Virus record (IMG/VR): IMGVR_UViG_2648501338_000019
Reading direction: 5' to 3' (one strand)
DNA from: a virus
Taxonomy: Duplodnaviria; Heunggongvirae; Uroviricota; Caudoviricetes
Length of the DNA stretch: 23,612 nucleotides
Part shown: in pieces, positions 1 through 20,570 of the stretch
Numbering within the stretch: position 1 is the first letter of the stretch
Layout of the letters: each line of letters begins with the position of its first letter
Translations under genes and position numbers: made by a program
The notes under the pieces: model-generated
Databases searched by the model: none
Told to the model about the DNA's origin: nothing
What the model saw: only the letters and a program-made list of their open reading frames with translations

Positions 1-351
1 ATGCGAGAGACAGTCGAAATTATGCGTTATCCCGTCACTCTTACACCCGCGCCGGAAGGCGGTTATATGGTTTCTTTTGTGGATATCCCTGAAGCGTTGA
101 CCCAGGGCGAAACTGTCGCTGAAGCGATGGAAGCGGCAAAAGATGCTTTACTGACCGCATTTGATTTTTATTTTGAAGATAACGAGCTTATCCCGTTACC
201 TTCGCCATTAAATAGTCACGATCATTTTATTGAAGTACCTTTGAGCGTCGCCTCTAAGGTATTGCTGTTAAATGCTTTTTTACAGTCAGAAATCACTCAG
301 CAAGAGTTAGCCAGGCGAATTGGCAACCCGAATGTAGTCAACCCCAAATAA
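1..351 (+). CDS. hicB: HicB-family antitoxin, N-terminal (HicA-binding) domain only; C-terminal DNA-binding domain absent. Likely true start is the ATG at 22 (MRYPVTL...)
   Basis: Translation MRYPVTLTPAPEGGYMVSFVDIPEALTQGETVAEAMEAAKDALLTAFDFYFEDNELIPLPSPLNSHDHFIEVPLSVASKVLLLNAFLQSEITQQELARRIG matches my recollection of E. coli HicB nearly residue for residue; it then diverges (NPNVVNPK, stop) at about nt 322-330 where a full HicB would continue into its DNA-binding domain. Confidence 0.7.
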   Translation: MRETVEIMRYPVTLTPAPEGGYMVSFVDIPEALTQGETVAEAMEAAKDALLTAFDFYFEDNELIPLPSPLNSHDHFIEVPLSVASKVLLLNAFLQSEITQQELARRIGNPNVVNPK

Positions 352-574
352 CTAAAAATTTTGCAATAAAAAGCCCCATCACAAGGACAAGGCTTAGAAA
401 TCAACTAATTAACATAGTTTCCAGATCAAAAGGGTTATAATGAAATCCATAAAAGGTGATCTGTTAGCTGGGTGCTGTATATCTAAAATGTTACTTAATT
501 AATATCGTTCTGGTGGTTAGCTTTCATCGCATCCCACCAATCTTTTGTGATCTTCATGTTATTGAATTTCATAA

Positions 575-1342
575 TTATTTGCACCCGTACTGGTCAATGT
601 ATGTTCTTGAATATTTTTTATGTACTTCTAAGCGAATCATATCTTGATTATCACGCCACACATAATATTTTTTGTTATCCACTTGGCCTTCATATTGCAT
701 TGCGCCATTCTGATGCGTCACTGTTTTTGTCTTTGCTTTATGCGCGTCATAATTATCACGATACACAAATTCAATAATTTCCCCGTCTTTTACTTTAAGT
801 TTAAGTTCACCAGAGTTATAACGAGGATAGCCAATGTCTTTAACTGCTTTTGTTTCTACCCCGTCTTGGATTTCCCAGCTATAGTGAACATCGCATTGCA
901 ATGTCATGTCTCCGGTAAATCCTTTTGGTTTATCTTCAACCTTCGGTTCTTCCACCACTTTTTCTTCCTGTTTCGGTTGTTCTTCTTCAACCTTCGCAGA
1001 AGTCTCTGAAACGCTCCCTGACGCGGTTTCTTCTTTAGATAATACATTCATCAAGTTTTGGATTTGAGCGTTGTATACAGCCTCCAGTGGCTGAATCTGC
1101 CCGATATTGATCATTGTGTCACGAACAGTTTTATTCCAGTTACGTTGCTCTTGTTTAAGAGACGGATTAATCTTAACAGCCTTAACATATACTTCATGAA
1201 GTTTAGAATCCAGTGCGGAGATTGACTCATTAGCACAAATAAACTTCTCTGATTTGGTAGTAGCCTTAGTGCAATCAAAGGACGCAGCATCAGCACCGAA
1301 AGCAGTAGCAGAAAGCATGATAGCAGCGATAATGTTTTTCAT
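575..1342 (-). CDS. secreted protein with N-terminal signal peptide and LprI/DUF1311-like domain, E/K/P-rich linker and a C-terminal beta-rich domain
   Basis: ORF of 255 aa; N-terminus MKNIIAAIMLSATAFGADAAS resembles a Sec signal peptide; FDCTKATTKSEKFICANESISALDSKLHEVY...QRNWNKTVRD resembles the DUF1311/LprI fold; SD AAGAGGT upstream of the ATG on the minus strand. Confidence 0.55.
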   Translation of the reverse strand: MKNIIAAIMLSATAFGADAASFDCTKATTKSEKFICANESISALDSKLHEVYVKAVKINPSLKQEQRNWNKTVRDTMINIGQIQPLEAVYNAQIQNLMNVLSKEETASGSVSETSAKVEEEQPKQEEKVVEEPKVEDKPKGFTGDMTLQCDVHYSWEIQDGVETKAVKDIGYPRYNSGELKLKVKDGEIIEFVYRDNYDAHKAKTKTVTHQNGAMQYEGQVDNKKYYVWRDNQDMIRLEVHKKYSRTYIDQYGCK

Positions 1343-1563
1343 TTTATACCTCTTTTGGTATGGACTGACTTTTAGATGCTTACTTTATTGATTTTTGATA
1401 TTTTTTCAATTATTGGGGTGAGATTTAGTAATTAAATTAAGAAATTAATACTTGACAAATTAAAAAGGTACTGTTCCATGGATGAAATAAAGGGAGTTTT
1501 CGGCACCCTGGTATTTGATGTGCGTGTGAGATTCTAAAACGTGATCACTTCACTTATGGCGCG

Positions 1564-1576
1564 GTCGCTACGCGAC
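1564..1576. other. GC-rich inverted repeat (GTCGC-TAC-GCGAC) in an AT-rich leader about 125 bp upstream of the small terminase gene; candidate packaging (cos/pac) site
   Basis: Seen directly; position relative to terS is analogous to lambda cos upstream of Nu1. Flanked by TTAGA-n-GCG direct repeats and a TGCGTAA / TTACGCA inverted pair at about 1650-1690 that could be terminase-binding elements. Confidence 0.2.
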
Positions 1577-1700
1577 TATTAACCCACTTCCTAACCCTTA
1601 CCATTACTGGATCTTTCCCTTCGTTAGAATGCGATTTAGGCGCTTAGATTGTGCGTAAAACCAATAAATAAAATTACGCAAATTTAATGGAGGATAACCA

Positions 1701-2255
1701 ATGAAAGAAGAATTAACCCTTACAGAAATTTCCCGTTTATATGGCTATACATTGAATGGTGGCGGTAAGCGATGGTTAGAAAGGGGATTGCCATTTAACA
1801 CCAATACCCGCCGCGTGCCAGCCAAAGAAGGAACAGAATGGGTCTTGAAAAATATTATCAACCCGCTTAAACAAACTTCTATCAAAGAACAAATCGACGT
1901 AGAGAAATTACGCCGTGAACGTGCTTTGGCAGATGCAGCCGAACGAGAGAACCAGGAAAAAATGAATCTCCTGATTCCTGTCGGTTATGTAGAACAGGAA
2001 CTAGCGGAATACTGCGGGAAAGTGAAACAGACTATTTTGCAGATTTGTACGATCGATGCCCTAGAAATTTTAGAATCCGCCACTGATCAGAAAACATTGA
2101 AGAATAAGCTAAGGGAGATCATCGAACGTCGTTTAAATGAAGTAGGGGACTTGTTCGAAAATGCAGATTTGGGAGAAGACGAGGAAGAAGAATTAGCATT
2201 AATGGATGAACCGGAACAAGAACCAGAAGAAGACGATGAATTTGATGTGTCTTAA
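1701..2255 (+). CDS. terminase small subunit, lambda Nu1-like
   Basis: 184 aa; N-terminal winged-HTH-like segment with the GGGK motif (LNGGGKRWLERGLPF) and a following KLRRERA coiled segment resemble lambda Nu1; acidic C-terminal tail; SD GGAGGA 7 nt upstream of the ATG. Confidence 0.7.
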   Translation: MKEELTLTEISRLYGYTLNGGGKRWLERGLPFNTNTRRVPAKEGTEWVLKNIINPLKQTSIKEQIDVEKLRRERALADAAERENQEKMNLLIPVGYVEQELAEYCGKVKQTILQICTIDALEILESATDQKTLKNKLREIIERRLNEVGDLFENADLGEDEEEELALMDEPEQEPEEDDEFDVS

Positions 2256-2306
2256 AAATTAGATACTAAACATATACGTGAAGGATGTTGAGCTGGTCAA
2301 CGTCTA

Positions 2307-2339
2307 CGGGGGAGAACATCCCCCGCTAACCTTTTTCTT
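2307..2339 (+). terminator. stem-loop CGGGGGA-GAACA-TCCCCCG followed by a T-rich run; probable terminator/attenuator after terS
   Basis: 7-bp G/C stem seen in sequence; the T-run is separated from the stem by about 6 nt, so termination efficiency is uncertain. Confidence 0.45.
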
Positions 2340-2355
2340 ATTTGAGGATTTACCT

Positions 2356-2457
2356 ATGGTTGAATTTTTGATTTATCTGGCTGTAGGATTAACTATCGTA
2401 TATTCACTTGCTCACATTGGCATTTCTACTGTGTGTAACGCTTTCAAGTATCATTAA
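2356..2457 (+). CDS. small hydrophobic peptide (33 aa), one predicted TM segment
   Basis: ATG preceded by GAGGAT SD (TTTGAGGATTTACCTATG); product MVEFLIYLAVGLTIVYSLAHIGISTVCNAFKYH is almost entirely hydrophobic. Confidence 0.3.
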   Translation: MVEFLIYLAVGLTIVYSLAHIGISTVCNAFKYH

Positions 2458-2510
2458 TTAAATCGATGAATTGAACTATAGATGATGGTCGTTTTCAAAG
2501 AGGATTATCT

Positions 2511-2684
2511 ATGGATCTTTTTGTCTACTTTGCTACTCTGCTGTTTTTGACTATCGTCGCTGGCATTAAATTGATTTTTATATCGCTGGTGGTGTTTTTC
2601 AAATTTCTAATCGGTACGCCTTACGGCTGGGTATGCTTAATCCTGTTTATTCTTTTTAGTTGCTGTAAAAAGGATACTAAATAA
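2511..2684 (+). CDS. small membrane protein (57 aa), two predicted TM helices, lysine-rich C-terminus
   Basis: ATG preceded by AGAGGAT SD; product MDLFVYFATLLFLTIVAGIKLIFISLVVFFKFLIGTPYGWVCLILFILFSCCKKDTK. Confidence 0.4.
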   Translation: MDLFVYFATLLFLTIVAGIKLIFISLVVFFKFLIGTPYGWVCLILFILFSCCKKDTK

Positions 2685-2842
2685 TAGTGTAATCTGCCTT
2701 TTCTCCTTATGGTTATTAACAGGGGATCTTCTTTGAGGATTCCCGATTAAAAGCCATAAAACACACTCCAGTACAGTGTTTTCATAGTCAGTGATCTATA
2801 CAACACAAAAACATAACAAGTATAGATTGAGTATTAATCCTC

Positions 2843-2868
2843 CCGCCCTTCGGGGCGGTTATTTTTCT
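2843..2868 (+). terminator. rho-independent terminator (CCGCCC-TTCG-GGGCGG followed by TTATTTTT)
   Basis: Perfect G/C stem with a UUCG-type loop immediately followed by a T-run. Confidence 0.6.
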
Positions 2869-2942
2869 GGCTTTAAAGAATAATGTAGCATTATGTTCAT
2901 TATAACCTCATCTTTGTTGTGCAAACCTAACCTAAACTTACT

Positions 2943-2967
2943 AGGGACTCTTCGGAGTCCCTTTTTT
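2943..2967 (+). terminator. rho-independent terminator (GGGACTC-TTCG-GAGTCCC + T6); overlaps the stop codon of the convergent minus-strand gene
   Basis: 7-bp perfect stem, UUCG loop, six T residues; sits at the convergence point of plus and minus transcription units. Confidence 0.6.
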
Positions 2968-3208
2968 ATGCAACAATTCGAAGTGTAGGTTTCTTATGTT
3001 GTGTAGGTTTAGTTTCATTTCGCCACTCAGGAAACACCTGATCCATCATAACCGCATTAGTCTCATCAATCAGTTTTAAGGACTTTCTCAACGCCTTATT
3101 ATCAGCTTTAAGAGTTTTAATCTCTGATTCCATCGCTACCATTCTTTCTTTCATTTTGGTAATTTCTAACATCAGATTACCAAGAAATTCTTTGTTTTGA
3201 TTAATCAT
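2966..3208 (-). CDS. hypothetical coiled-coil protein (80 aa)
   Basis: ORF immediately downstream of the 347-aa gene on the minus strand; heptad-like ITKMKERMVAMESEIKTLKADNKALRKSLKL. Confidence 0.5.
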   Translation of the reverse strand: MINQNKEFLGNLMLEITKMKERMVAMESEIKTLKADNKALRKSLKLIDETNAVMMDQVFPEWRNETKPTQHKKPTLRIVA

Positions 3209-3223
3209 AGAATTACCTCTCTA

Positions 3224-4267
3224 TTAAGCTGCGTAGGCGTAGGCGTAGGCGTAGGCGTAGGCGTAGGCGTAGGCGTAGGCGTAGGCGCTGTAGTTGGTGT
3301 CATAGATAGCGTCATGCAGTGCCATCTGTGCTTCGCGGATCTCGTCTTCGTTTACTTCAATCTCTTCTTGTTCTTCTTCGGTATCTTCCCAAGTGGTTTT
3401 GAATTTAGCCATAAAGTTATTGCGCAGGGATTCAAAGTTAGTAACAGGTGCGGATTTTTCTTCAACCGGAACTACTACCGGATCAGCTTCTTTCTGTTCT
3501 TCCTGTCCTACTTTTTCACCGTTACCCCAGCGATAGTTAAGGAGTTCTTCCAGTTCTTCATCAATGGATTTTTCTTCAACTGCTTCAACTTCAACCGCTG
3601 CTACTTCGAAAGTGGTTTCCTGCGCTGCCAGTTCAGCTTTCAGAGATGCGTTTTCAGCTTCCAGTTCAGCAATGCGTGCTTTCAGTGCTTCAACTTCGGA
3701 AGATTCAACCACTGCAACTTCTTCTTTAACTTCTTCAACTACTACCGGAGCAACTTCTTTCTGTGCTTCTTTTTTGCAGAAGAAGGAGGAAGTAACCTGT
3801 AATGCGTGGTTGTAGAAGGAACCGCCTTTAGCGGTGTTAACAGTACCAGAAACATCCTTTACAGTGGATTCAGTAGCAACAGTACGGAAGCGTTTTGCAA
3901 CTTCCTGGGTCTCTACGCCGTATTCGTTACGCTTGCTCTTGTGATGCATTACAGCACGGAAGCCGGAAGCAGTTTTAATAACAGCGAGATAGTAAGTTTC
4001 ATCGGCTTTAACAGCACGAGCGAAGCAATAAACGGATTCACCTTCTACCAGTGTAGGTTTAACGTGACGTTTGTCGAAACGGTTAGTGATCTGCCATTCA
4101 GCACCGTCTTTGATGCCAGCATTCTGACGCATTTCGGTCAGAGTCTTACCGGATACTACTTCAAAGGATTTGTCTTGTTTGCTTGCTTTACCTTCCATAA
4201 CGGTAATGTTCAGTTTGCCGTTGGATTTGATGAATAGGTTGAAGGTGATGCGCTTAGAATTTTTCAT
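3224..4267 (-). CDS. hypothetical protein (347 aa): N-terminal globular domain, acidic linker, leucine-zipper-like coiled coil, acidic region and a C-terminal (Ala-Tyr)9 dipeptide repeat
   Basis: Good SD (AGGAG) 11 nt upstream of the ATG on the minus strand; sensible amino-acid composition, whereas the overlapping plus-strand ORF 3197-3802 is a Phe-rich low-complexity antisense artefact; coiled coil EALKARIAELEAENASLKAELAAQ. Confidence 0.6.
   Translation of the reverse strand: MKNSKRITFNLFIKSNGKLNITVMEGKASKQDKSFEVVSGKTLTEMRQNAGIKDGAEWQITNRFDKRHVKPTLVEGESVYCFARAVKADETYYLAVIKTASGFRAVMHHKSKRNEYGVETQEVAKRFRTVATESTVKDVSGTVNTAKGGSFYNHALQVTSSFFCKKEAQKEVAPVVVEEVKEEVAVVESSEVEALKARIAELEAENASLKAELAAQETTFEVAAVEVEAVEEKSIDEELEELLNYRWGNGEKVGQEEQKEADPVVVPVEEKSAPVTNFESLRNNFMAKFKTTWEDTEEEQEEIEVNEDEIREAQMALHDAIYDTNYSAYAYAYAYAYAYAYAYAYAA
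3231..3284. repeat. perfect hexanucleotide microsatellite (GCGTAG)9, which encodes (Ala-Tyr)9 at the 3' end of the minus-strand gene
   Basis: Nine uninterrupted GCGTAG units read directly from the sequence, followed by a degenerate unit GCGCTG. Confidence 0.95.
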
Positions 4268-4383
4268 TTATAAATACTCCTGAATGCTGTGTTAGTTTTA
4301 ATTGTTCATTTCAAGTCTCCTTTGCTGCAACAAGGGAGGCTTTTTATTTTTAAAGCCATCATATAATTCTCAGTGAAAGTGGA

Positions 4384-4563
4384 TTAACAAACTTGAACGT
4401 TAATCTTTACCTGAATTTCGTATTTCTTCATTAGCTTATAGAATCCGCTTCTATCAATCCCTTCCTTCTTAAAGAAGTTTTCCCCGCCTCGCTCAGTGTC
4501 GCTGTAAAACCGTTTAGCAATATCAACAATCATTTCACGAGTAAATTTAACAGGTCTAGCCAT
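4384..4563 (-). CDS. small HTH DNA-binding protein (59 aa from the ATG at 4563; the ORF track extends it to a GTG at 4578)
   Basis: MARPVKFTREMIVDIAKRFYSD...GIDRSGFYKLMKKYEI has a resolvase/transposase-type HTH signature; SD GAGGAA 9 nt upstream of the ATG at 4563. Confidence 0.5.
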   Translation of the reverse strand: MARPVKFTREMIVDIAKRFYSDTERGGENFFKKEGIDRSGFYKLMKKYEIQVKINVQVC

Positions 4564-4905
4564 AAATCGATTCCTCACATGTGGATTAATAATTCCTTAA
4601 AAAAGAGCTTTTCGCTCTGAACAATTCTATTTATAAAAATGATTTTCAAAAACTCTGTAAAACAACTGTATATCCGATCAGTGGGAGCACGAATTGCTAA
4701 AGAGAAGATTAATAATTAATCAATTCGTACAATATTCGACCGAAAAAGCACTGCATATCTAACCAGTGCTGTATGAATTAACAGTTAGTCAAGGGATTTT
4801 CAGAAGTGAACAATCATTTTTCATGCATTGTATTTATACACGAAAAATCATGCTTATCATCTATATGGGGATTGTTTGGAAAATTTCAACCCCTACCAAG
4901 GATAA

Positions 4906-4936
4906 AAAGTATAAAATAGTTCTTGACACATGTCAA
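4906..4936 (-). promoter_or_regulatory. candidate sigma70 promoter firing leftward (-35 TTGACA, 17-bp spacer, -10 TATACT); the -35 lies inside the inverted repeat TTGACA-CA-TGTCAA
   Basis: Hexamers and spacing read on the minus strand; the inverted repeat places a second TTGACA on the plus strand, which suggests an operator or divergent promoter. Confidence 0.4.
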
Positions 4937-4964
4937 CATTCATGATCTAAGCGAGAAAGGTGTA

Positions 4965-5133
4965 TCAAAATTTTTGTTTGAAAATGGCAAATAATGATTA
5001 TCAACCTTTTAAACCTTATATGGCACGGAGATCTTTTGAAAATTTCTTTTAAATCATGAATTTACATCTATTTTTGGTGGTTTTTTGGTTGAATAATATA
5101 CAAGAATTTTTTGTCAAAATTTTTGATTGAAAA
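4965..5133. repeat. AT-rich region with two copies of the 20-bp direct repeat TCAAAATTTTTG(T/A)TTGAAAA (4965-4984 and 5114-5133) and related A/T tracts
   Basis: Seen directly; lies immediately upstream of the iteron array. Confidence 0.5.
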
Positions 5134-5252
5134 CCTACACTACACACCTACCCTTTAAAGGGATTGGCCTACACTACACTAGCCAGTAAACCTACACTAT
5201 AACACCCTCAAACCTACACTATGAAACCTACACACCTACACTAACCCTACAC
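5134..5252 (+). repeat. iteron-like array: 7 perfect plus 1 variant copy of CCTACAC (4 as the 10-mer AAACCTACAC) in about 120 bp, three of them at 22-bp spacing
   Basis: Copies at 5134, 5169, 5191, 5213, 5227, 5235, 5246, with variant CCTACCC at 5147; counted directly. Confidence 0.8.
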
Positions 5253-5597
5253 TTCAATCACGTAAGTGTATGACCTTGAAAGGTATTATACCCCACAGAC
5301 CATAGAATATAAAATTCGAACTAACGTTCTCCTTTTTGCTCGCTTTCTCTCACTACGTTCAAGAAAGATCTCGCAAAAAGAATACGGCGTAGCCGTGCGC
5401 GTAGCGCCCACCAACACCTTCTAAGACCTGCAAGCAGGATTCGAAAGGGATTGATAGTTCGCTTCGCTCACGTTCACGCCTACGGCGTTCACTCACTTTT
5501 AAAAGGATTTTCTTAGAAAGGGATTTAATACTAGTTACTAACTGATTCTAGTAAACGAACGAAGTGAGTAACAATCAATTTCTAGAAAGGTATTGGT

Positions 5598-5626
5598 ATC
5601 CCTTCGGGATTGCAACCTTCGGTTGC
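5598..5626 (+). other. two adjacent UUCG-loop hairpins (ATCCC-TTCG-GGGAT and GCAACC-TTCG-GTTGC) in non-coding DNA; possible RNA 3' end or processing/stability element
   Basis: Perfect stems seen in sequence; no overlapping ORF; not followed by a clean T-run. Confidence 0.35.
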
Positions 5627-5867
5627 TAAATTGCTTCCTGATTATTATTTCTTCAAAAGAAAGATTCTTATATTCTAAAGATACTTCTTCGTTTTGATGA
5701 TGATTTAATCAAATCTATGAAGGGGGGCTTTAGCCCGACTGAATCCAATCATCTTTCAAGTACAGACCAGTTTTGGACTCTACCAGATCACTCTTTTCAT
5801 AATAACAAGAATTTTCTCTTTATAAATAATATTAGATTGATTCGCTTTCTTTTAGAGGATTTCCACT

Positions 5868-6335
5868 ATGAACCATAAAATGACTACCACTACTCCTTTC
5901 ATCCTGTTAGGTTTTGATGCTGATAGCTTCCACAATGACAAGTTAATGAAGATCTTTGTTGAACGTGGTTACAACATTCTTTTCAACTCTGATGAATCTC
6001 ATTTCTCTAGTGTATGGTATGCGTTTTGCCGTAATAAGAAGCCGACCATTGTTGTTAACGTCTTCACCGATGAAGGCCGCTTAAAGTACCAGAATATTCC
6101 AGCGATCATCGTTAGCGAATACCTTCCTTTCGAAGTCCGTTCCGGTGATGTTGATCTGGGTAGCTTCTTTACTCTTCAAGAACTGGATGAAGCAATGTTT
6201 AACTACGGCAAAGAAACCGCTCAGAAAGCACCAGAACGCGATGAAGAAGACGAAGATGATGATGACTACGCACCAATCGCTTTTTCTTCTCACGGTGGCT
6301 TCTACGGTTACGATGAAGGCTTAGATATGCTGTAA
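5868..6335 (+). CDS. hypothetical protein (155 aa) with a strongly acidic C-terminal segment (ERDEEDEDDDDY)
   Basis: ATG preceded by AGAGGAT SD; no family recognised from sequence. Confidence 0.55.
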   Translation: MNHKMTTTTPFILLGFDADSFHNDKLMKIFVERGYNILFNSDESHFSSVWYAFCRNKKPTIVVNVFTDEGRLKYQNIPAIIVSEYLPFEVRSGDVDLGSFFTLQELDEAMFNYGKETAQKAPERDEEDEDDDDYAPIAFSSHGGFYGYDEGLDML

Positions 6336-6457
6336 GTTAGGTCAACCCTTTGGCATCTTGTCAAGGGGTATTGGCAAAATTTTCAGACTTTTTTATGATT
6401 ATCGCACTTGACAACTTTGAACTGATTTGACCTAGGTTTGTAAAGAGGATGTGAACT

Positions 6458-6610
6458 ATGAATACTACTAAGAAAATTGATGGACGTAAAAACCCGAACC
6501 GCAAGCCGTGGACACCAAACCTGAATTTCTCGATGGTTGATTACCACGAACGCCAGCGCCAGATTCAAGAAGAAATTGATCGCTGCCTGGCTGAATACAA
6601 AACGAGATAA
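6458..6610 (+). CDS. small basic protein (50 aa)
   Basis: Not in the ORF track (under 60 aa) but has a strong AGAGGAT SD 7 nt upstream of the ATG; product MNTTKKIDGRKNPNRKPWTPNLNFSMVDYHERQRQIQEEIDRCLAEYKTR. Confidence 0.35.
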   Translation: MNTTKKIDGRKNPNRKPWTPNLNFSMVDYHERQRQIQEEIDRCLAEYKTR

Positions 6611-6694
6611 AACTTCTTATAAATAAAATTGTTCCGGTGGTGATGCCGGAACAGGGAGGATTAAATCACTAAACCGTTAAGGGGGATTTTTACT

Positions 6695-7492
6695 ATGAAT
6701 ACTGCTGTTAAAACTGCTTCCGTGTCTCTGGTTGTTGATAACACCAAACCACTGACCATGTCTTCTCGTCAGATCGCTGAATTTACCGGAAAAGAACACA
6801 AAAACGTTAAAGCTGATATTGTTAAGATGTTTAAAGCACTTGAATTAGATGCGCTGAAATCTCAGCGTATCTATTTTGACCAATATGGACGCGAACAAAC
6901 CGAATATCACCTTGACGAAGAAATGACGCTGACTCTTGTTACTGGTTACGATGTTAAACGTCGAATGATTGTTATTCAGGAATGGAAACGACTGAAAGAA
7001 GAAAATGAAAAACTGCGTCAGGAACGTTTAGCCGTTAACCCGTATGCAGACTTTGAAGAAACCGACTGGATCGAACTGGCGTTAAAGAAAACTCGCGAGA
7101 ACAAGCAACTGATTACTCTACATCATCGCAAATCCGTAGATAGCCATTCAATGACGCGTCTGTTAGGTGCTAAAAAGGGCGCTACGAAGGTTAAAGAAGC
7201 ACTGACGGCCTTACGTACTGCCGGATACATTGAGCGCGTCTATGATGAAAATAACAAGCCGTGTGGGTATGTTGCTAATGATTCCGCGATACCGTTTTGC
7301 AGCATGAACGCTCACTATCAACTTTCTTTCACTGTTGATGTGCTTCCGGTGCTGGTTGAATTGGGTGTTCTTGAAGAAGAACAAAAAGCAGCTTTGACAC
7401 TGCCTAAACCGAATAACACGATCATGATTCAGAATAAAGCGACTATCATGATTCGTCAGAATGTTGGATCGCTAGAACACTTCGGACTGTAA
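6695..7492 (+). CDS. phage regulatory protein, Rha family (antirepressor-like N-terminal domain)
   Basis: N-terminal LTMSSRQIAEFTGKEHKNVKADIVKMF matches the Rha/pRha signature as I recall it; followed by a strong terminator. Confidence 0.6.
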   Translation: MNTAVKTASVSLVVDNTKPLTMSSRQIAEFTGKEHKNVKADIVKMFKALELDALKSQRIYFDQYGREQTEYHLDEEMTLTLVTGYDVKRRMIVIQEWKRLKEENEKLRQERLAVNPYADFEETDWIELALKKTRENKQLITLHHRKSVDSHSMTRLLGAKKGATKVKEALTALRTAGYIERVYDENNKPCGYVANDSAIPFCSMNAHYQLSFTVDVLPVLVELGVLEEEQKAALTLPKPNNTIMIQNKATIMIRQNVGSLEHFGL

Positions 7493-7500
7493 TAATTTTT

Positions 7501-7527
7501 GCCCCTGAATTTCAGGGGCTTTTTTGT
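7501..7527 (+). terminator. rho-independent terminator (GCCCCTGAA-T-TTCAGGGGC + T7)
   Basis: 9-bp perfect stem followed directly by TTTTTTG. Confidence 0.75.
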
Positions 7528-7538
7528 ATCTGTAGGTA

Positions 7539-7566
7539 TAAAAAAAGCCAACCCCGAAGGATTGGC
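7539..7566 (-). terminator. minus-strand terminator (on minus: GCCAATCC-TTCG-GGGTTGGC + T8) downstream of the 76-aa gene
   Basis: Imperfect stem with a U-run when read on the minus strand. Confidence 0.5.
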
Positions 7567-7574
7567 CTAGAGAA

Positions 7575-7805
7575 TCAATTTCCTGTTGCTTCTACCATTT
7601 CACCGTCAACCTGAACAAAGAATTTCAAATCAACTTTATGTAGGGATTTGTATAGCTGGGCTATAGATAAGCCATGCTCATTTAATACCCGTTCTTTGTT
7701 CTCTTTACCTTTCGGTGCTTGATAGTACGCTTTTACAATCTCTGCCAGTTGTTCACGATTAAAACGGGCAGGACGACCGCGAGTAGCTTTAGTAGTCATA
7801 GTCAT
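7575..7805 (-). CDS. small HTH DNA-binding protein (76 aa; an alternative ATG at 7799 has better SD spacing); paralog of the 4384-4563 product
   Basis: TRGRPARFNREQLAEIVKAYY...GLSIAQLYKSL shares the R-P-x-x-F-x-R-E...I-x-K-x-Y-Y pattern with the 59-aa protein; the only early-region gene with a TGA stop. Confidence 0.5.
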   Translation of the reverse strand: MTMTTKATRGRPARFNREQLAEIVKAYYQAPKGKENKERVLNEHGLSIAQLYKSLHKVDLKFFVQVDGEMVEATGN

Positions 7806-7833
7806 TTCTCCAAATTAAAGTGAATGTTCACCT

Positions 7834-8439
7834 TTATTTAGAGGACTTACATTTTATCGGAAAAAGTTCTCCATCGTCAACTGACATAAAAAACTCTGCC
7901 TTAATCCCGTACTTCTTCAACCGTGAATAGTATGTACCCCGACTTATATCAACCTTGCGCAGCACTTCGAAGAACTCTTTAGGATTCCTGTAATAATGGC
8001 TATATCGCACGTTAGCGAGTTCTACAAACAATTCCCTTGTATCACCATAGCCTTTCTTGAAAGCCACGTTACGATAGCGTGTAATGGCATGATTCAATCT
8101 CTTCTGTTTAAGCACTTCCCTGATCGGCTTCCACTGCAACCGATAGATTGGACCGTCATCCACTCGATAATAACGCTTGATATCAAAATCAAACCATTCA
8201 CGGACTCGCTGAAACTCTGTCTGTGATGTTCGGTGCTTCTTAAAGAAGTTATGGATATCTGTATACCCATGATCGCGATACAACTCGATTAAAATTTGCT
8301 TCGCTTCTTCGCGACTAAAACCGGATGTAGTGTAATCAGTCTTCTTGTGATGGTGCTTAACTGGCAAACGATATTCATGATCGGTACAACAAGACAAGGC
8401 TAATTCTAATTCATCTCTTTCTTGCTGATTAATTAGCAT
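7834..8439 (-). CDS. hypothetical protein (201 aa) whose C-terminus carries the same HTH motif (DISRGTYYSRLKKYGI)
   Basis: ORF with the HTH motif shared with the two small HTH proteins; transcribed divergently from the large terminase gene. Confidence 0.5.
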   Translation of the reverse strand: MLINQQERDELELALSCCTDHEYRLPVKHHHKKTDYTTSGFSREEAKQILIELYRDHGYTDIHNFFKKHRTSQTEFQRVREWFDFDIKRYYRVDDGPIYRLQWKPIREVLKQKRLNHAITRYRNVAFKKGYGDTRELFVELANVRYSHYYRNPKEFFEVLRKVDISRGTYYSRLKKYGIKAEFFMSVDDGELFPIKCKSSK

Positions 8440-8526
8440 ACACCCCCCTTAAATCTTAATACCCGTATTTATCAAAATATCAACAATTTAATAAATACCT
8501 TCATATTTCGTAATGAGGGTAATTAC

Positions 8527-10431
8527 ATGAAACTGATTTCTAATAAGGCCAAATTAAAAAAGATTCTTAAAAATATCTCTGCGGCAATTCGCCCACCTAA
8601 AACGATGAAACCTAGCGAATGGGTAGAGGCTAATGTAGTTGCAACCGATGGTGTTAAAGCCGGATCTCTAATTAAGTTGCATCCCTTCCAACGTGGAATG
8701 ATGGACGCGATCACCGAAGATAGGCGAAAAATTGTGCTAAAGTGCTCGGCACAGTTGGGTAAAACTCTTGTGCTAAACGGTATTATCTTTCACAGGATCG
8801 CCAGTAACCCTACTAATATCGGTGTTTTGCAAGCGAACGTTCGAGAATTGAACTCATGGATTGCGGGTAAGGTGAAGCCAGTATTAGAGGCAACCCCAGA
8901 ATTAAAGGCGATGATCACCGACAAATCAGATCGCAATGCCGTTAACAACTCATCGATTATTCAGCTTCGTAACGGATCATTCATGTATTTCATGTCGCTG
9001 AACAGTCCATCACACTTGCGCGGTAAGACACTGCCTTTGATTATTCTGGATGAAGTTGATGCGGCTGATGAGTCAGACGAAGGGAACCCGATCCAGCTAG
9101 CGGAACAACGCGCAACCACTTTCGGTGATGATGCAAGGATCGTAATTGCTTCTACTCCAACTTCGCGGGATGGGGCGATAAACCAACAATGGGAACTCTC
9201 GGATAAAAGAAAATACCACGTCGTTTGCCAGCATTGCGGACACAAACACGTAATGGAATGGAGTAGAGTATTCTTTGATTGGCATGTAATCAATGGTAAA
9301 TCACTGCCGAATCCAGACACAGCCGTTTACCGTTGCCCGTCATGTGAAACTGATTGGTCAGAACCAGATCGCCTCCGTGCTGTTGCTCAGGGAGAATGGG
9401 TCGCCACCGAACCAAATGCGGAAGTAATCGGTTTTCATGCTAACCGCCTTATGTCTCCGTTTAGTTCTATCCGTGCGTGTGTGGTGGACTTTGCTGATAG
9501 CTACGCGAATATGTCACTGGCAACGTTCTATAATGTGGTGCTCGGTGAAACCTTCGATGATCTTAACGAAGACCGCACAGCCGACGAACTGGAAACGCTG
9601 AAAACTGACATTAGCTTAGATAATATTCCTGATGATGTTCTGGCTCTGGTAGGTGGAGTTGACCAGCAAAAAGACCGTCTGGAATCTACCTTGCTGGGTA
9701 TCTCTCGTAAGGGGATATGCGTAGTTGATCACCGATCATTCTATGATGTGAACTGCGAACGCCACGAATCGCCAGCATATGACCAGCTTTACAACTTCCT
9801 GAAAGCTAAATTCTATACCCGATCAGGTCAACGAATCCCGATGCTATCTGCTTTCGTGGACTCATCGAACGGACGAGCTACAAACGTGATCTATCGCTTC
9901 TGCACTAGGTGGCAAAACCTATGCGCCATTAAAGGGGCAAGCAATGTTGATGCTCCAATCCTTCCGGTCAAGGACACAAGAACGGGTGGTTTTACTCTTA
10001 AAATTCTGGGCGTAAACAACCTTAAGACGATGATCCGTGAAATGATTAACCGGAACTTGAGAGACAGCGATCCTCATACGGTCTTCCAGATTGGTGACGT
10101 TCCTGATGACTACTGCGAACAATTGTTATCTGAACAGTTGAAACGGCAGGGTAATACCACACGTTGGGTAAAAGTTGGTCAGCAACGAAACGAGGCTCTC
10201 GACTGCCTGGCTTATTCCTATGCTGCTTCTCGCCATGTACTCAATAAAATGTCATGGGAAAAACTCGAAGCCATCAAAGATAGTTTGAACCGCGAACCAG
10301 AAGAACCCGTAGAAGCTCCTAAATCGCAATCTGACGAGCAAATCGAAGAAAATAAGCCAATCACACGACCACAACGTAAAAACATCGCCAGACGCCCAAA
10401 TAGAGGCCGTAGCTGGGTAACATCGTTCTAA
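8527..10431 (+). CDS. terminase large subunit, lambda GpA family
   Basis: 634 aa; Walker A-like KCSAQLGKT, Walker B-like LIILDEVD, and overall length and layout like lambda gpA (N-terminal ATPase, C-terminal nuclease); strong SD. Confidence 0.9.
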   Translation: MKLISNKAKLKKILKNISAAIRPPKTMKPSEWVEANVVATDGVKAGSLIKLHPFQRGMMDAITEDRRKIVLKCSAQLGKTLVLNGIIFHRIASNPTNIGVLQANVRELNSWIAGKVKPVLEATPELKAMITDKSDRNAVNNSSIIQLRNGSFMYFMSLNSPSHLRGKTLPLIILDEVDAADESDEGNPIQLAEQRATTFGDDARIVIASTPTSRDGAINQQWELSDKRKYHVVCQHCGHKHVMEWSRVFFDWHVINGKSLPNPDTAVYRCPSCETDWSEPDRLRAVAQGEWVATEPNAEVIGFHANRLMSPFSSIRACVVDFADSYANMSLATFYNVVLGETFDDLNEDRTADELETLKTDISLDNIPDDVLALVGGVDQQKDRLESTLLGISRKGICVVDHRSFYDVNCERHESPAYDQLYNFLKAKFYTRSGQRIPMLSAFVDSSNGRATNVIYRFCTRWQNLCAIKGASNVDAPILPVKDTRTGGFTLKILGVNNLKTMIREMINRNLRDSDPHTVFQIGDVPDDYCEQLLSEQLKRQGNTTRWVKVGQQRNEALDCLAYSYAASRHVLNKMSWEKLEAIKDSLNREPEEPVEAPKSQSDEQIEENKPITRPQRKNIARRPNRGRSWVTSF

Positions 10432-10503
10432 TAACTCGCCGTCCTTCGGGGCGGCTTACTCCTAAATATTGTTAATCCAATAACAATTAAATAAGGGGTA
10501 ATT

Positions 10504-10998
10504 ATGAGTTTAGAACTAATTCCCTTAGTAATTCGTAAAGGCGAAAAAGTCACGCTGGCGAATGAAGAGGGTGTAACAATTCAGGTAGGAAATAATAAAG
10601 GTATTATCTATCAGGTTGATGATTCTCCGGCTAATCATGAGATTAAAACCTTAGATTTTGCCGAAGGTAAATATACCATCGTAATAACTTTGGAAGAAGA
10701 ACTGGTATCAATGCAGGAATTAACTGTTTTGCCAGTATTCGCCAAACAATCCAAAAAAGAATATCTGCGGGAAACTATCGCCTTAATCGAGCAAGTTATT
10801 TTCGCCCGTTTATCTGGGGACGAAGCCGCATTATCTCAAATGACAGTGAAAGGGAATACTTTCGCCTATGAGTCATTGGCTGTTCTCCAGCAATTAAAGA
10901 CTGATTATGAACGTCAGTTATCTAAATTAATTCAAGCCGAACGACGTAAACAGGGAATTAGTCCGATTAAAAATATCAAATTACGTCTTACGCGATAA
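10504..10998 (+). CDS. hypothetical head-module protein (164 aa) in the position lambda gpW occupies between terminase and portal
   Basis: Synteny only; conserved TAAGGGGTAAT initiation motif upstream. Confidence 0.45.
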   Translation: MSLELIPLVIRKGEKVTLANEEGVTIQVGNNKGIIYQVDDSPANHEIKTLDFAEGKYTIVITLEEELVSMQELTVLPVFAKQSKKEYLRETIALIEQVIFARLSGDEAALSQMTVKGNTFAYESLAVLQQLKTDYERQLSKLIQAERRKQGISPIKNIKLRLTR

Positions 10999-11008
10999 GG
11001 GGTAAATC

Positions 11009-12520
11009 ATGTTTAATCTTTTTCGACGCAAAAAGGCGGTAGAAACTCCAGTTAAAACTAATCACCGCCAGCAACAACAAAAAATCTTTATCGACAAACA
11101 AGTAGAAAAATTCCAGAAATCTCTGGCTACTCGAAGTTTAGGTCTGGTTGGTGATCGCATTGATGGATCGCTTCAACAAGATACTATCACAGGAACCTTC
11201 AATAAGGCTCTCAAATCGAATGGTAAGCGCCTTTATGATCAGGGTCGTACTCTGGCCTTAAACACCTCCGTAGGCAGTCGCTACACGCAATACATCACCG
11301 ATATGGTGGTAGGTACTGGCCTAGATCCGAAGCCGTCAGTTGTTAAATCAAATGGAAAACTTGATAGCGCACTGAATAAGCAGATCGAGAATGCTTTCTG
11401 GAAGTGGGCGCAGAATGCTAAACGCTTCTCTCGTAACGGTCGCTTTAACTTCCGTGAATTGCTGGTAATGGCTGAACGTGAGCGCGTTATGGGTGGTGAG
11501 TGCTTCATAGTTTTAACCAAAGAAAACAATGAGTTAAATGTTTCTATCCTGTCTGCTGATAAGTGCGACTGGACGCTCAACCGTGAAGTAAGCAAAGAAC
11601 GCGCTATCTATCAGGGGATCGAGTATGACGTAGAAACAATGCGCCCTGTTGCATTTTGGTTTCGTAAAATCAACCTACTGACTCAGACTTACACAGGTGA
11701 TAACTATCGCGTAGATGCTTCGCAAGTATGTCATTATTATCAACCACTTGCGGCTGAATCTCTGCGTGGTGTGACTGACTTCCTGCCAGTGATTAAGGAT
11801 ATCGCACATCAAGACGCATTCCGCGAAGCTGTACTGGTACATAAACGAATTTCAAGTTGTAGCATGGCGTTCATCGAGCGTCCGAAAGATTCTGGTGACG
11901 ATTTTGATACTGGTGAAGATGATGAACAATATCAAGCGCCGGAAGTTATTCACGATTTCGCGCCAGGTACTATTCAGGAATTACCGGAAGGGGCAACGAT
12001 CAAGAGTATTCAATCCACGCAAAGCGGCGATGACTTTAACAGCTTCAATGATGGAATGTTCACGAGTATAGCGATGGGTCTTGGCGTGTTCAATCAGGGC
12101 TTAACTGGCGATACTAGCCAAATAAATTACAGCGCCGCACGCTACGGCGAATTACTTCAAAGAACGCGCGTTAAAGCACTGCAAAACAAATTGATTGAAA
12201 CAGTGGTATTGCCAATTTTTGAAGCATATCTACGCCATTATTCTGCGCGTGGTATTGTTCCGATTCGTATTACTGCAATTCCGCATATTATCGAGAACAC
12301 TACTATTATTCGTCCTCGTTTTGAATCCGTCGATCCATTTAAAGACGTAAGCGCCGAGATTGCTTTAATTGATAACGGACTTAAATCACGTACTGCCGTT
12401 ATATTAGAACGTGGTGATGATCCTGAAAAAGTATTCTCAGAGATTCAAGCCGAAAAGAGCGCACTAAATATTATCGTTGATGGTGAGAGCAAGGATAACC
12501 CTTCTCAAACCGATCCCTAA
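11009..12520 (+). CDS. portal protein, lambda gpB-like
   Basis: 503 aa directly after the terminase; segments such as FNSFNDGMFTSIAMGLGVFNQGL resemble the lambda gpB core; acidic C-terminal tail. Confidence 0.85.
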   Translation: MFNLFRRKKAVETPVKTNHRQQQQKIFIDKQVEKFQKSLATRSLGLVGDRIDGSLQQDTITGTFNKALKSNGKRLYDQGRTLALNTSVGSRYTQYITDMVVGTGLDPKPSVVKSNGKLDSALNKQIENAFWKWAQNAKRFSRNGRFNFRELLVMAERERVMGGECFIVLTKENNELNVSILSADKCDWTLNREVSKERAIYQGIEYDVETMRPVAFWFRKINLLTQTYTGDNYRVDASQVCHYYQPLAAESLRGVTDFLPVIKDIAHQDAFREAVLVHKRISSCSMAFIERPKDSGDDFDTGEDDEQYQAPEVIHDFAPGTIQELPEGATIKSIQSTQSGDDFNSFNDGMFTSIAMGLGVFNQGLTGDTSQINYSAARYGELLQRTRVKALQNKLIETVVLPIFEAYLRHYSARGIVPIRITAIPHIIENTTIIRPRFESVDPFKDVSAEIALIDNGLKSRTAVILERGDDPEKVFSEIQAEKSALNIIVDGESKDNPSQTDP

Positions 12521-12565
12521 TAACCAACGGGGGCGCAATGCCCCCAATTAATTAAAGGTGATTAA

Positions 12566-14572
12566 ATGCTTAAATTTCGCCGCGATCTTAACGGTTACGG
12601 TGGAGTTATTAACGAAGGGCAGAATGATCAATACGAATTTGAAATTGCTTTCTCCAGTGAACAGCCTTATCAGCGCCAATTCTGGGATGAGCAAAATCAA
12701 GAAATGGTGGTATTAGATGAAATTCTGGTACATACACCGGAAGCGGTTGATCTGTCTCGTCTGAATAATAACGCTCCGTTGCTGTTCAATCATAATTTCG
12801 ATAATCATATTGGTGTCGTTTGTAACGCTCGAATCGATGCGGATAACGTAGGTCGTGCTCTGGTTAAATTCTCTAAGCATGGCACTTTGGCTAATGATAT
12901 TCGTAATAAAGTCATTGAAGGTACGATGGAAAAAATTTCTGTCGGTTATGACATTAAAGAATATCACATCGACTACACCAAAGGACAATTGATTGTTACT
13001 AAATGGATTCCTCACGAGGTTTCATGGGTGTCTGTTCCCGCAGACGACACCGTGGGTCTGAATCGCTCTCTAAATACTATCACAGTTAATTTGGAGGCTA
13101 AACGCGATATGACTAAAGAACAAATCGAAGAAATCAAAGAAGAACAAGAACCCGCTCAGGTTGAAGAAACTCCGGTAGAAGAAAATAAAGAACCGGAAGT
13201 AGAAGAAACTCAAGAGCGCCAAGTTGAAGAGAATAAAGAAGATGAAAATCTCGAAGACGGAAAAGACGCTAAACATCCTGAAAGTGTTGATGATGATAGT
13301 TCAACTGTTCGGGAAACAGAAGAAGTAAAAGAAGAACGTGAAGCCGCTCCGGTTGAAGAAGAAAAAATCGAAGAAGTGGCTGAACGTTCCGAAGAAGACG
13401 AAGAAGAAATCCGAGCAATCGCTCGTGAGTTAAATATTAACGACGAAGAATTAGAACGCGCATTGGCAGTTAAAGATATGACGCCGGAAGCATTCCGCAC
13501 TAAGGCACTAAATAACATTACCAATGCTCAACGTAATAACGAACAAATTAATAAGGAACAAATCATGGAAAAAACTTTCGATCTTAATAACGTAATCCGC
13601 TCCCTGGTAGATGGCGACGTGCTCGGCGCTAACGAAGCTGAATATTCCGCTATGGCTGCTGGTGCTGCAATGCAGCGTGGTCGTGCTGCTCGCGGTGGCT
13701 CTGTATTCGTTCCGGCTGCTGCTCTGCGTGCTGCTTCCGAAGGTAACACCAAAGCTACTCTGACCGCTGTAACCGACGAAAAACTGCTGACCGAATCCTA
13801 TGTAGAAATGCTGCTTCCACAGTCTGTTCTGGGTCGTCTGGGTGTGACTGTTCTGTCTGGTCTGAATAGCCCGATTGCAGTACCAAAAATGACTGCTTCC
13901 AGCGTCGAAGCCTTTGGTTTTGTTGATGAAAATGGAAGTGCCCCCGAATCGAAGGCTAGCTTTGAAAACGTGAAAATGGCTCCGAAAACTTTTGCTGGTG
14001 GCAACCCGATCAGCCGTCAGTCTCTGAAAACTGTTCCGAATATTGCTACCCTGATCACTGATCACATTAACAAATCTGTTCGGATCAAACTGGAACAACT
14101 GATTCTGTCTGACAAAGACAACGAGCGCGGTCCGAAAGGTCTGGTTAAGCAACTGGTAGACGGTGGTCGCGTTACTAAGAAAGCCGCTTTTAGCTACAAA
14201 GACTTCCTGAAAGAAATTGCAGCACTGACCGACGCTGGCGTTCCGGCACAGTCCATCAAGTTTGCAATGAGCGGTGCAACTGCTGCTGAACTGGAATCTA
14301 CCCTGAAAGATAACGGCGTTTCCGGTTATATCATCGAAAACGGCAAACTGGCTGGTTACGATGTAGTTACTTCTGGCGTTATTCCGGCAGACCACATCGT
14401 TCTGGGTGACTTCTCCGGTATCATGATCGGTGAATGGGGTGGTCTGGAACTGGATATGGACGACACCACTTACCGCGCACAGTCTGCTATCGTTCCGCGT
14501 ATCTGGGTAGACCTGGACTTCACCGTAGTTCAGCCGGAAGCTCTGAAAGTTCTTCACATCTCCGCTGAATGA
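12566..14572 (+). CDS. prohead protease - acidic scaffold-like linker - HK97-fold major capsid protein fusion (668 aa); TGA stop
   Basis: N-terminal region resembles HK97-family prohead protease, the middle about 130 aa is E/K-rich (scaffold/delta-like), the C-terminal about 330 aa resembles HK97-type major capsid proteins; lies between portal and neck genes. Confidence 0.8.
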   Translation: MLKFRRDLNGYGGVINEGQNDQYEFEIAFSSEQPYQRQFWDEQNQEMVVLDEILVHTPEAVDLSRLNNNAPLLFNHNFDNHIGVVCNARIDADNVGRALVKFSKHGTLANDIRNKVIEGTMEKISVGYDIKEYHIDYTKGQLIVTKWIPHEVSWVSVPADDTVGLNRSLNTITVNLEAKRDMTKEQIEEIKEEQEPAQVEETPVEENKEPEVEETQERQVEENKEDENLEDGKDAKHPESVDDDSSTVRETEEVKEEREAAPVEEEKIEEVAERSEEDEEEIRAIARELNINDEELERALAVKDMTPEAFRTKALNNITNAQRNNEQINKEQIMEKTFDLNNVIRSLVDGDVLGANEAEYSAMAAGAAMQRGRAARGGSVFVPAAALRAASEGNTKATLTAVTDEKLLTESYVEMLLPQSVLGRLGVTVLSGLNSPIAVPKMTASSVEAFGFVDENGSAPESKASFENVKMAPKTFAGGNPISRQSLKTVPNIATLITDHINKSVRIKLEQLILSDKDNERGPKGLVKQLVDGGRVTKKAAFSYKDFLKEIAALTDAGVPAQSIKFAMSGATAAELESTLKDNGVSGYIIENGKLAGYDVVTSGVIPADHIVLGDFSGIMIGEWGGLELDMDDTTYRAQSAIVPRIWVDLDFTVVQPEALKVLHISAE

Positions 14573-14701
14573 ACTAACGTAGAACCATCTGAACCTTCCC
14601 CCGATTTGGGGGAAGAAAATCTGATTCCATCTCAGGAAGAAGAATCTCAGACGGTTACGGCGAAAGCCACAGTTAAAAAACAACGTAAAACTAAAGAATA
14701 A
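14573..14701 (+). CDS. in-frame 42-codon extension after the capsid gene TGA (TNVEPSEPSPDLGEENLIPSQEEESQTVTAKATVKKQRKTKE, then TAA TAA); candidate readthrough product
   Basis: Frame checked codon by codon; no start codon with an SD inside; homologous to the extension after the major tail gene. Confidence 0.4.
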   Translation, partial: TNVEPSEPSPDLGEENLIPSQEEESQTVTAKATVKKQRKTKE

Positions 14702-14706
14702 TAATT

Positions 14707-14734
14707 AGCCCTGCCTAACGGTGGGGCTTTTTTG
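14707..14734 (+). terminator. rho-independent terminator (AGCCCTGCC-TAAC-GGTGGGGCT + T6)
   Basis: 9-bp stem with two G-U pairs followed by TTTTTTG; near-identical copy after the major tail gene. Confidence 0.8.
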
Positions 14735-14763
14735 TATGTAAATACTCCATAAAGGGGGTAACT

Positions 14764-15054
14764 ATGTTCAAATTATCAGAATCACAATTAAATCGAATGT
14801 TTAAAAGTGCTCCTGTATTTTCGGTGGAAGGTGGTAAATCAATTCGTGCTTACCATGAAATTACTACTACCGACGAATCAGGTGTAATGACAGAAACCGA
14901 ATTTCTATTCTGTCGTGAGGGAGACTTAAAGCAAGGTGATATTGTCACAGTAGAAAACCAGCGTTTCAAAGTTCAATACGTTAAGCGCAATGGTGACAAT
15001 ACTTGTGATTGCTTTATCACTTTAGCAGGGGGTACACATGCTCGCTACCGTTAA
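14764..15054 (+). CDS. putative head-tail adaptor / head completion protein (96 aa)
   Basis: Size and position immediately after the capsid gene; conserved AAAGGGGGTAAC initiation motif. Confidence 0.45.
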   Translation: MFKLSESQLNRMFKSAPVFSVEGGKSIRAYHEITTTDESGVMTETEFLFCREGDLKQGDIVTVENQRFKVQYVKRNGDNTCDCFITLAGGTHARYR

Positions 15055-15460: not shown

Positions 15461-15469
15461 GGGGTAATA

Positions 15470-16303: not shown

Positions 16304-16335
16304 GGATTCTCCTACCTAAATAAAACATGAACGTT

Positions 16336-16368
16336 GGGAGGTTAACGCCTCCCTTATTCCTGTTTTAT
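16336..16368 (+). terminator. stem-loop GGGAGG-TTAACG-CCTCCC followed by a T-rich tract; candidate terminator/attenuator before the fibre gene
   Basis: Perfect 6-bp stem; the downstream TTATTCCTGTTTTA is only moderately U-rich. Confidence 0.4.
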
Positions 16369-16384
16369 AGTGAGGTGATTCTAG

Positions 16385-19885: not shown

Positions 19886-19941
19886 TAAAAGTCGGGGGAC
19901 TAGTTCCCCCGTAATAACAATTTTAATTAAGGGGTAATTCT

Positions 19942-20535: not shown

Positions 20536-20540
20536 TTATA

Positions 20541-20570
20541 AGCCCTGCCTTAATGGTGGGGCTTTTTTAT
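20541..20570 (+). terminator. rho-independent terminator (AGCCCTGCC-TTAAT-GGTGGGGCT + T6), homolog of the one at 14707
   Basis: Same stem sequence as the capsid terminator; loop differs by one inserted base. Confidence 0.8.

Follow-up and report, generated by a model that had tools for sequence, protein, structure and literature searches.

How half of an antitoxin gene comes to stand at the head of a run of phage genes is the question raised by this locus. The window, by which we mean the whole stretch of 23,612 nucleotides from the tailed-phage record IMGVR_UViG_2648501338_000019, opens with an ORF at positions 1-351 on the plus strand, present in the ORF list and translated as 116 amino acids. 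The initial annotation offered two readings of it: (a) a decoy antitoxin carried by a phage and directed against HicA-type toxins, or (b) the left boundary of an element that has entered a chromosomal hicB. The host-junction reading is the one supported by our comparisons, with hicA found upstream, the 3' remnant of hicB at the far end of the element and the empty site in 5282 genomes. We are highly confident, on the strength of sequence comparison, that positions 1-351 represent the attL of a tailed temperate phage integrated into hicB by a large serine recombinase (LSR); for the truncated product (HicB') we propose the probable fate considered further below.

The resemblance of the ORF to HicB is genuine. 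Pfam finds a single domain, PF15919 (HicB_lk_antitox), over residues 10-74 at 33.4 bits against a cut-off of 27, and finds neither HTH_3 nor any other DNA-binding domain within the 116 residues, which bears out the earlier recognition of a HicB N-terminal domain. The HicB of E. coli K-12 has 138 residues, among which Pfam places HicB_lk_antitox at 3-67 and HTH_3 at 88-134, and solved structures of E. coli HicB are available (PDB 6HPB, 6HPC and 6U0I). In the nucleotide alignment, positions 1-326 differ from the K-12 hicB locus by only two substitutions and similarity to K-12 hicB, and hence to attB, collapses from position 327. E. coli C325 has a chromosome that is identical to the window over 14 kb (100% across the first 1500 nucleotides), and the hicB part of the window is matched in 5323 of 5426 complete E. 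coli genomes.

In C325, RefSeq starts hicB at window position 22 and flags it as a pseudogene that is "missing C-terminus". Counted from this start, HicB' has 109 residues, of which the first 101 are identical in protein sequence to residues 1-101 of K-12 HicB, whilst the remaining eight (NPNVVNPK) are phage-encoded and are followed by a stop. The cut lies after G101 (...QQELARRIG/KPKQEITRLF..., with the slash at the break), inside the HTH and at the turn that precedes the recognition helix. The earlier observation that the ORF diverges from HicB stands, but the break had been placed where the DNA-binding domain begins and in fact falls within HTH_3. Some 14-20 residues of the HTH are retained and 37 C-terminal residues are missing, taking with them the recognition helix, the helices that follow it and the C-terminal dimerisation strand; the HicA-binding domain is complete. 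The in-frame ATG at the very start of the window, to which attention had been drawn, is present but is merely an upstream alternative start chosen by gene callers, and the start of the window is without biological meaning.

The ORF had also, as one alternative, been called an orphan antitoxin, with the suggestion that the DNA upstream be inspected for hicA, and that inspection removes the epithet. The hicA gene itself lies outside the window, its adjacency being known from C325 and from other assemblies that carry exactly this ORF. In C325 the cognate hicA (177 nt) is intact and ends 24 bp upstream of window position 1, preceded by sutR, rlhA and yncJ in the same order as in K-12. Index entries for the exact 116-residue protein occur in 1225 blocks of the collection, and six public assemblies that encode it all show the arrangement sutR-rlhA-yncJ-(hicA)-hicB'-LprI. 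The coordinates of the features within the window, and of related loci elsewhere, are collected in Table 1.

Table 1. Features of the window and of related loci (positions are those of the window unless another source is given)
Feature	Position	Strand	Basis or content
Host DNA, 5' part of chromosomal hicB	1..326	+	324/326 identical to K-12; 100% to C325
Truncated hicB' ORF	22..351	+	K-12 and lysogen translations compared; Pfam; RefSeq pseudogene
Central dinucleotide AA of attL, crossover	325..326	.	attB/attL/attR comparison in EC416; ycdX-type phage agrees
Phage arm of attL, the right half of attP, CCCGAATGTAGTCAACCCCAAATAAC	327..352	.	Supplies the last 8 codons and TAA
Left approximately two-thirds of a ~35-kb tailed prophage	327..23517	+	ORFs, PHROGs, annotation of relatives
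Terminator-like hairpin and T-run, between the LprI-family gene and the junction	371..395	-	Consensus scan
LprI-family (lysozyme-inhibitor-like) protein, 255 aa, first prophage gene	575..1342	-	RefSeq annotation of identical DNA; phrog_14799, E 1e-114
End of an IS3-family insertion sequence in the tape-measure gene	23518..23612	.	Matches the terminus of the C325 IS3-family element at 95/95 nt
C325 breakpoints	NZ_CP124819.1; extracted segments L003 14383-15700 and L021 2499-5949		Capsid gene + IS3-family element + ynfF 5' / 279-aa recombinase + ynfF 3'
ycdX-type sibling loci	Extracted segments L007 4276-42244; L017 2148-2552; L018 2746-3150

The architecture of the full element is taken from relatives, the window itself ending in an insertion sequence before the recombinase gene is reached. 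In the complete genomes H2 and EC416 the order is hicA, the 5' part of hicB, about 35 kb of tailed-phage genes, a gene for a 559-residue recombinase, a 120-nt hicB 3' remnant and ydcR; the attL of EC416 is identical to that of the window, and RefSeq labels the 120-nt fragment "missing N-terminus". Between the two hicB pieces lie genes for an LprI-family protein, small terminase, Rha/Ant, terminase gpA, portal, a 668-residue capsid protein, tail fibre, tail tube, tape measure, tail tip and a lysin of the D-Ala-D-Ala carboxypeptidase type. The 559-residue "recombinase family protein" of H2, which adjoins attR, has Resolvase, Recombinase and Zn_ribbon_recom domains by Pfam and is therefore an LSR; its counterpart in EC416 is 99.6% identical, and it is the sole recombinase annotated in these elements. 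The nearest relatives of the recombinase in the deposited phage collection are only about 30% identical, and a PDB search returned no informative or close solved structure for it.

C325 also has the attR junction with the hicB 3' remnant, so that the 3' portion of hicB expected at the other end of the element is present next to ydcR in H2, EC416 and C325 alike. In C325, however, attR lies about 205 kb away and is inverted, leaving the two halves of hicB far apart and in opposite orientation. There attR adjoins a truncated, 279-residue recombinase fused to the ynfF region, and the capsid gene is joined via an insertion sequence to the other part of ynfF; an IS-associated inversion of ~205 kb together with a deletion has locked the remnant in place. 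A much reduced remnant is found in GCA_951423045.1 (extracted segment L026 3001-6351), where the 559-residue recombinase gene is only about 2.3 kb from attL and nearly all phage genes are deleted. A separate small observation concerns attR of H2 (extracted segment L005 ~12691-12566, minus strand), where an in-frame ATG (ATGATATTAGGG) comes from the left arm of attP. It stands three codons ahead of the hicB 3' remnant and would open an ORF of 41 residues (MILG+KPKQEITRLF...LVMV), which is probably meaningless.

With both ends of the element available, the att sites can be given to the base. The attB of K-12 reads GAATTGGC-AA-ACCTAAACAGG, the attL shared by the window, C325 and EC416 reads GAATTGGC-AA-CCCGAATGTAGTC, and the attR of EC416 reads ATATTAGGA-AA-ACCTAAACAGG. 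The reconstructed attP of the hicB type is GTTATTGTGGGTACATGATATTAGGA-AA-CCCGAATGTAGTCAACCCCAAATAAC, with the core form ...ATATTAGGA-AA-CCCGAATGTAG.... Bacterial identity in EC416 stops at ...GGCAA in attL and starts at AAACC... in attR, and the AA at window positions 325-326 is all that the four sites share. The neighbouring GG, CA and the next AA were each considered as the crossover dinucleotide and are incompatible with the observed attL and attR sequences. The inferred attP is dyad-symmetric at 17 of 26 half-site positions, compared with 7 of 24 for attB, and all lysogens examined share one breakpoint, at which the target site is not duplicated and a long core is absent. Serine integrases are recognised by this combination of features: an exchange of 2 bp, a dyad-symmetric attP and no long direct repeat. 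The att direct repeat that the initial annotation had expected thus exists only nominally, as a shared core of two bases in the window type; the missing longer repeat would not speak against a junction, since a serine recombinase is expected to leave just 2 bp in common. The phage arm of the H2 type has 9 bp in common with attB (AAACCTAAA, which contains the AA) and shows a 1-nt shift in register of the ATGTnGTnAACCCC motif relative to the crossover when compared with the window type. The C-terminal tails that result are NPNVVNPK in the window type and KPKCCKPQ in the H2 type, and both stop after exactly eight codons. On the minus strand, the hairpin listed in Table 1 comprises a 10-bp stem and then TTTATTGC, and is a pattern match only.

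A second set of prophages allowed the crossover to be checked at an independent site. Sibling prophages split ycdX, which encodes a zinc-binding phosphatase, in UTME-9, 23CRST001 and ETEC1739 and in at least 12 of the surveyed genomes, and carry no hicB sequence. The attB in ycdX is ATCCCGGA-AA-TCCCAAATATG, and in UTME-9 the overlap is again AA only, in the same place within an attP that is almost identical to that of the hicB type, its few differing bases lying close to the crossover; the CCCGAATGTAGTCAACCCCAAATAAC arm is also present in the ycdX-type attL. The two attB sites are alike, following GG[C/A]-AA-[A/T]CC[T/C]AAA. The recombinase of the ycdX type is 92% identical to that of the hicB type, with the differences concentrated in residues 151-400, and from sequence comparison these enzymes may possibly be a natural specificity-switch pair in which the determinants of att recognition map to residues ~151-400. 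As the 92%-identical sibling targets a similar site in the unrelated ycdX, the choice of site appears to follow DNA sequence rather than gene function. Scans of the window with Rfam and for tRNA genes found nothing, and integration is therefore not tRNA-associated.

We surveyed 5426 complete E. coli genomes to see how the site is used. Intact attB was found in 5282 of them with 11-mer seeds; an apparent excess of some 260 genomes without intact attB proved to be a seeding artefact of megablast. The phage-side arm of attL occurs in 26 genomes, adjoining hicB in 25 and ycdX in one, and a complete attR junction is present in 22 genomes, whilst about 12 others have a partial one, with the same attP arm next to different phage genes. 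Occupied hicB sites thus amount to ~34-35 genomes, an occupancy of about 0.6%. HicB' is an open 109-residue ORF in all examined lysogens that have the hicB 5' part. The hicA gene is intact in 10 of 13 lysogens examined; the HicA protein is identical to that of K-12 in the four lysogens translated, and two others carry different protein accessions. In the other three (EC42405, 14EC029 and EC05) hicA is damaged, two having a 22-bp deletion and one lacking hicA together with hicB nucleotides 1-180. Neither lesion is peculiar to lysogens. The 22-bp deletion, flanked by TGCG microhomology, is found in identical form in 811 of the 5426 genomes, and the loss of hicA with hicB nucleotides 1-180 in 1093, so that about 35% of complete E. 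coli genomes carry a hicA-inactivating allele and the hicA locus is one that frequently decays. Selection for hicA loss in lysogens was considered and set aside, as 3/13 against a background of ~35% is no enrichment in what is a small sample uncorrected for phylogeny. Given that the lesions are common lineage alleles and that hicA is intact in most of the lysogens, there is no sign of selection against hicA in these strains.

The 2-bp staggered exchange at the central AA, ascribed to the LSR, fell within the codons for the turn of the HicB HTH; it joined hicB codons 1-101 to eight phage codons and a stop and moved the last 37 hicB codons some 35 kb away to attR, beside ydcR. The HicB N-terminal domain neutralises HicA, and EcHicB dimerises via the strand that follows its HTH core (PMC11594946). 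HicB represses the promoter P2 at hicO, the P2 transcript yielding translated HicB only, and the most prevalent classes of natural HicB are proteins of 63-103 residues without a DNA-binding domain (PMC10865869). HicB' keeps the partial RNase-H-fold domain that binds HicA and has lost the recognition helix and the dimerising strand, and by analogy with the natural small HicBs it probably still sequesters HicA, one-to-one, but would be unable to autoregulate, leaving P2 derepressed. In the absence of repression at hicO, expression of hicB' would be constitutive. An intact hicB is predicted to return if the LSR, acting together with a directionality factor, excises the prophage precisely. In the source genome, as in C325, the prophage has probably been disabled by insertion sequences and hicB left permanently split.

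The alternatives differ in whether they dispute the origin of the junction or only its consequences. A decoy with which a phage counters the HicA-type toxins of its host, as a form of anti-defence, would fit an ORF that has a HicB N-domain, lacks the DNA-binding part and is followed by phage genes; acquisition by phages of antitoxins, or of mimics of them, is known (PMC11594946). We nevertheless give this reading next to no credence. Of the 351 nucleotides, 326 are host chromosome and lie outside the att-delimited phage, to which only positions 327-351 belong; the excised phage, as judged by the reconstructed attP, would hold just the last eight codons; the cognate hicA adjoins; the missing 3' end of hicB has been located at attR; and the ycdX-integrating siblings do without hicB altogether. 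Taken together, the host origin of positions 1-326, the adjoining hicA and the reconstructed attP rule the decoy out, and the ORF is an ordinary host-prophage boundary and not an anti-defence gene. An equally slight chance attaches to the idea that some other process made the junction (a tyrosine integrase, transposition or illegitimate recombination) and that the serine recombinase is incidental. This would have to accommodate a breakpoint that is identical in all lysogens examined and shows neither duplicated target nor long core, a 2-bp overlap that occupies one and the same place in attP for each of two independent target genes, the dyad symmetry of attP, and the fact that the LSR beside attR is the only recombinase annotated in the elements.

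Two further readings accept the serine-integrase junction in hicB and differ over HicB'. It is possible, though on the unlikely side, that HicB' is a dead product, misfolded or rapidly degraded, and that HicA goes unneutralised, its low activity being tolerated and envelope stress responses lowered. Deletion of ydcQ (hicB) is viable in K-12 and suppresses the lethality of an rpoE deletion (PMC2215328), an effect later ascribed to activation of the toxin, and because the deletion is viable the viability of lysogens is no proof that HicA is neutralised. The half HTH left behind and the loss of the dimerisation strand could destabilise HicB', and RefSeq calls the gene a pseudogene. Against this, the HicA-binding domain is whole and natural HicBs of 63-103 residues function without a DNA-binding domain (PMC10865869); hicA is also not preferentially lost from lysogens, with the reservation about sample size and phylogeny given above. 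A more ambitious proposal is that of a phage-operated toxin-antitoxin switch, whereby lysogeny turns an HTH-type HicB into one without a DNA-binding domain, P2 is derepressed, HicA activity changes and excision by the LSR reverses the change. We consider this improbable, and slightly more so the adaptive form of it, in which integration and excision would reversibly rewire hicAB, in the manner of active lysogeny, and phage or host would gain from the altered HicA activity or hicAB expression. An LSR integrates precisely and, in principle, reversibly, the target lies in the regulatory HTH part and spares the neutralising part, both variants of the phage arm end the ORF after exactly eight codons, and HicA modules have been proposed to act in phage defence (PMC10865869). 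The sibling recombinase, however, uses a sequence-similar site in the unrelated ycdX, about 35% of E. coli are without a functional hicA and the phage integrates there too (EC42405, 14EC029, EC05), occupancy of the site is low and several copies are locked remnants. Were such a switch to operate, effects might be seen on envelope stress, dependence on sigma-E or HicA-based phage defence.

The reading that we prefer, a serine-integrase attL in hicB with a product that probably still binds HicA, places the locus among known arrangements. Elements with serine integrases that split host genes include Listeria A118 in comK, the B. subtilis phage SPbeta in spsM and the mycobacteriophage Bxb1 in groEL1, and phiC31 is a further example of such an integrase. 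The hicB phage resembles these in having an LSR with Resolvase, Recombinase and Zn-ribbon domains, an intragenic attB with the halves of the gene at attL and attR, a 2-bp crossover, no long direct repeat and an imperfectly dyad-symmetric attP. It is unlike them in that its host is E. coli and its target a toxin-antitoxin gene. Phages also make antitoxin mimics or decoys, such as Dmd of T4, which acts against RnlA and LsoA, and pseudo-ToxI. The likeness of HicB' to this class is superficial, consisting of an antitoxin-like ORF beside phage genes, and HicB' is not a member, being host DNA with its toxin adjacent.

As to the protein, HicB' derives from the same gene, at the same locus (sutR-rlhA-yncJ-hicA-hicB), as K-12 HicB (b1438/ydcQ), which is the antitoxin and the repressor of hicAB; relative to that protein HicB' is without the last 37 residues, ends in eight phage-encoded residues and has no detectable HTH_3. 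The small HicBs of classes 1 and 2 (Gerdes, mBio 2024, PMC10865869) offer the best functional analogy for how HicB' might still work: they have 63-103 residues to its 109, and both they and HicB' consist of a partial RNase-H-fold domain encoded next to hicA. They are, however, native evolved architectures, whereas HicB' arose when a class 3 (HTH) HicB was truncated by accident, and half of the HTH remains in it. The lysogens provide natural strains, hicA+ with an HTH-truncated hicB, for asking whether the HicB N-domain alone suffices in vivo.

The kind of feature described here, a serine-integrase prophage that splits a host gene, is already known, and RefSeq had already flagged the ORF as a hicB pseudogene. 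Searches of the available literature corpus for hicB or ycdX as the attB of a prophage or serine integrase returned no paper. What the present comparison provides is base-resolution attB, attP, attL and attR sequences, with the AA crossover, for an uncharacterised group of E. coli serine-integrase phages with two intragenic sites, hicB and ycdX. The existence of two 92%-identical enzymes that have near-identical attP sites and different attB sites may be of interest for genome-engineering tools based on serine integrases.

The remainder of the window is phage-like, as had been claimed for everything downstream of the ORF: PHROGs matches (small terminase, Ant/Rha, head-tail joining and tail proteins) and the RefSeq annotation of relatives (terminase gpA, portal, capsid, tail tube and tail fibre) agree on this. 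The gene content between the junction and the insertion sequence comprises a small terminase-like protein, Ant/Rha, terminase gpA, portal, the 668-residue capsid protein, a tail-fibre protein of 1166 residues, tail tube and the start of the tape measure. The relatives H2 and CE0007a cover 85-87% of the window at ~90% identity, and the matches of relatives to the window end at position 23516. The terminal insertion sequence, which we take to be IS629/IS1203-like, interrupts the tape-measure gene, and for this reason the rest of the prophage is hidden from the window and the copy in the source genome is probably defective, unless the contig simply broke at the insertion sequence.

Among 50,697 deposited phage records no whole-phage relative was found at a coverage of at least 80%, the only sharing being in patches with RB49-like phages. 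Two stretches of the window, ~530-3000 (the LprI-family region) and ~18000-19450 (part of the 1166-residue tail-fibre gene), have 80-84% nucleotide identity to phages of the RB49 group, which are lytic, T4-like phages (Krischvirus); in those phages the matching DNA is located between the long-tail-fibre and holin genes. Such a pattern suggests, at the level of sequence, that genes have been exchanged between a temperate and a virulent phage group.

Two repeat-bearing regions of the window may also be mentioned. At positions 3231-3290, within the minus-strand ORF 3224-4267, there is a perfect tandem hexanucleotide, (GCGTAG)n, of about 10 copies, which lies at the 3' end of a hypothetical gene for 347 residues. 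Homologues of this gene in relatives range from 996 to 1056 nt, which suggests polymorphism in repeat number. Further along, positions 4579-5867 form an AT-rich stretch of ~1.3 kb (GC ~0.30-0.41) that has no annotated gene in any relative and no Rfam match. It contains clustered AAACCTACAC(T) repeats at 5131-5242, with inverted copies near 2977-3010, and these could be operator or iteron-like sites.
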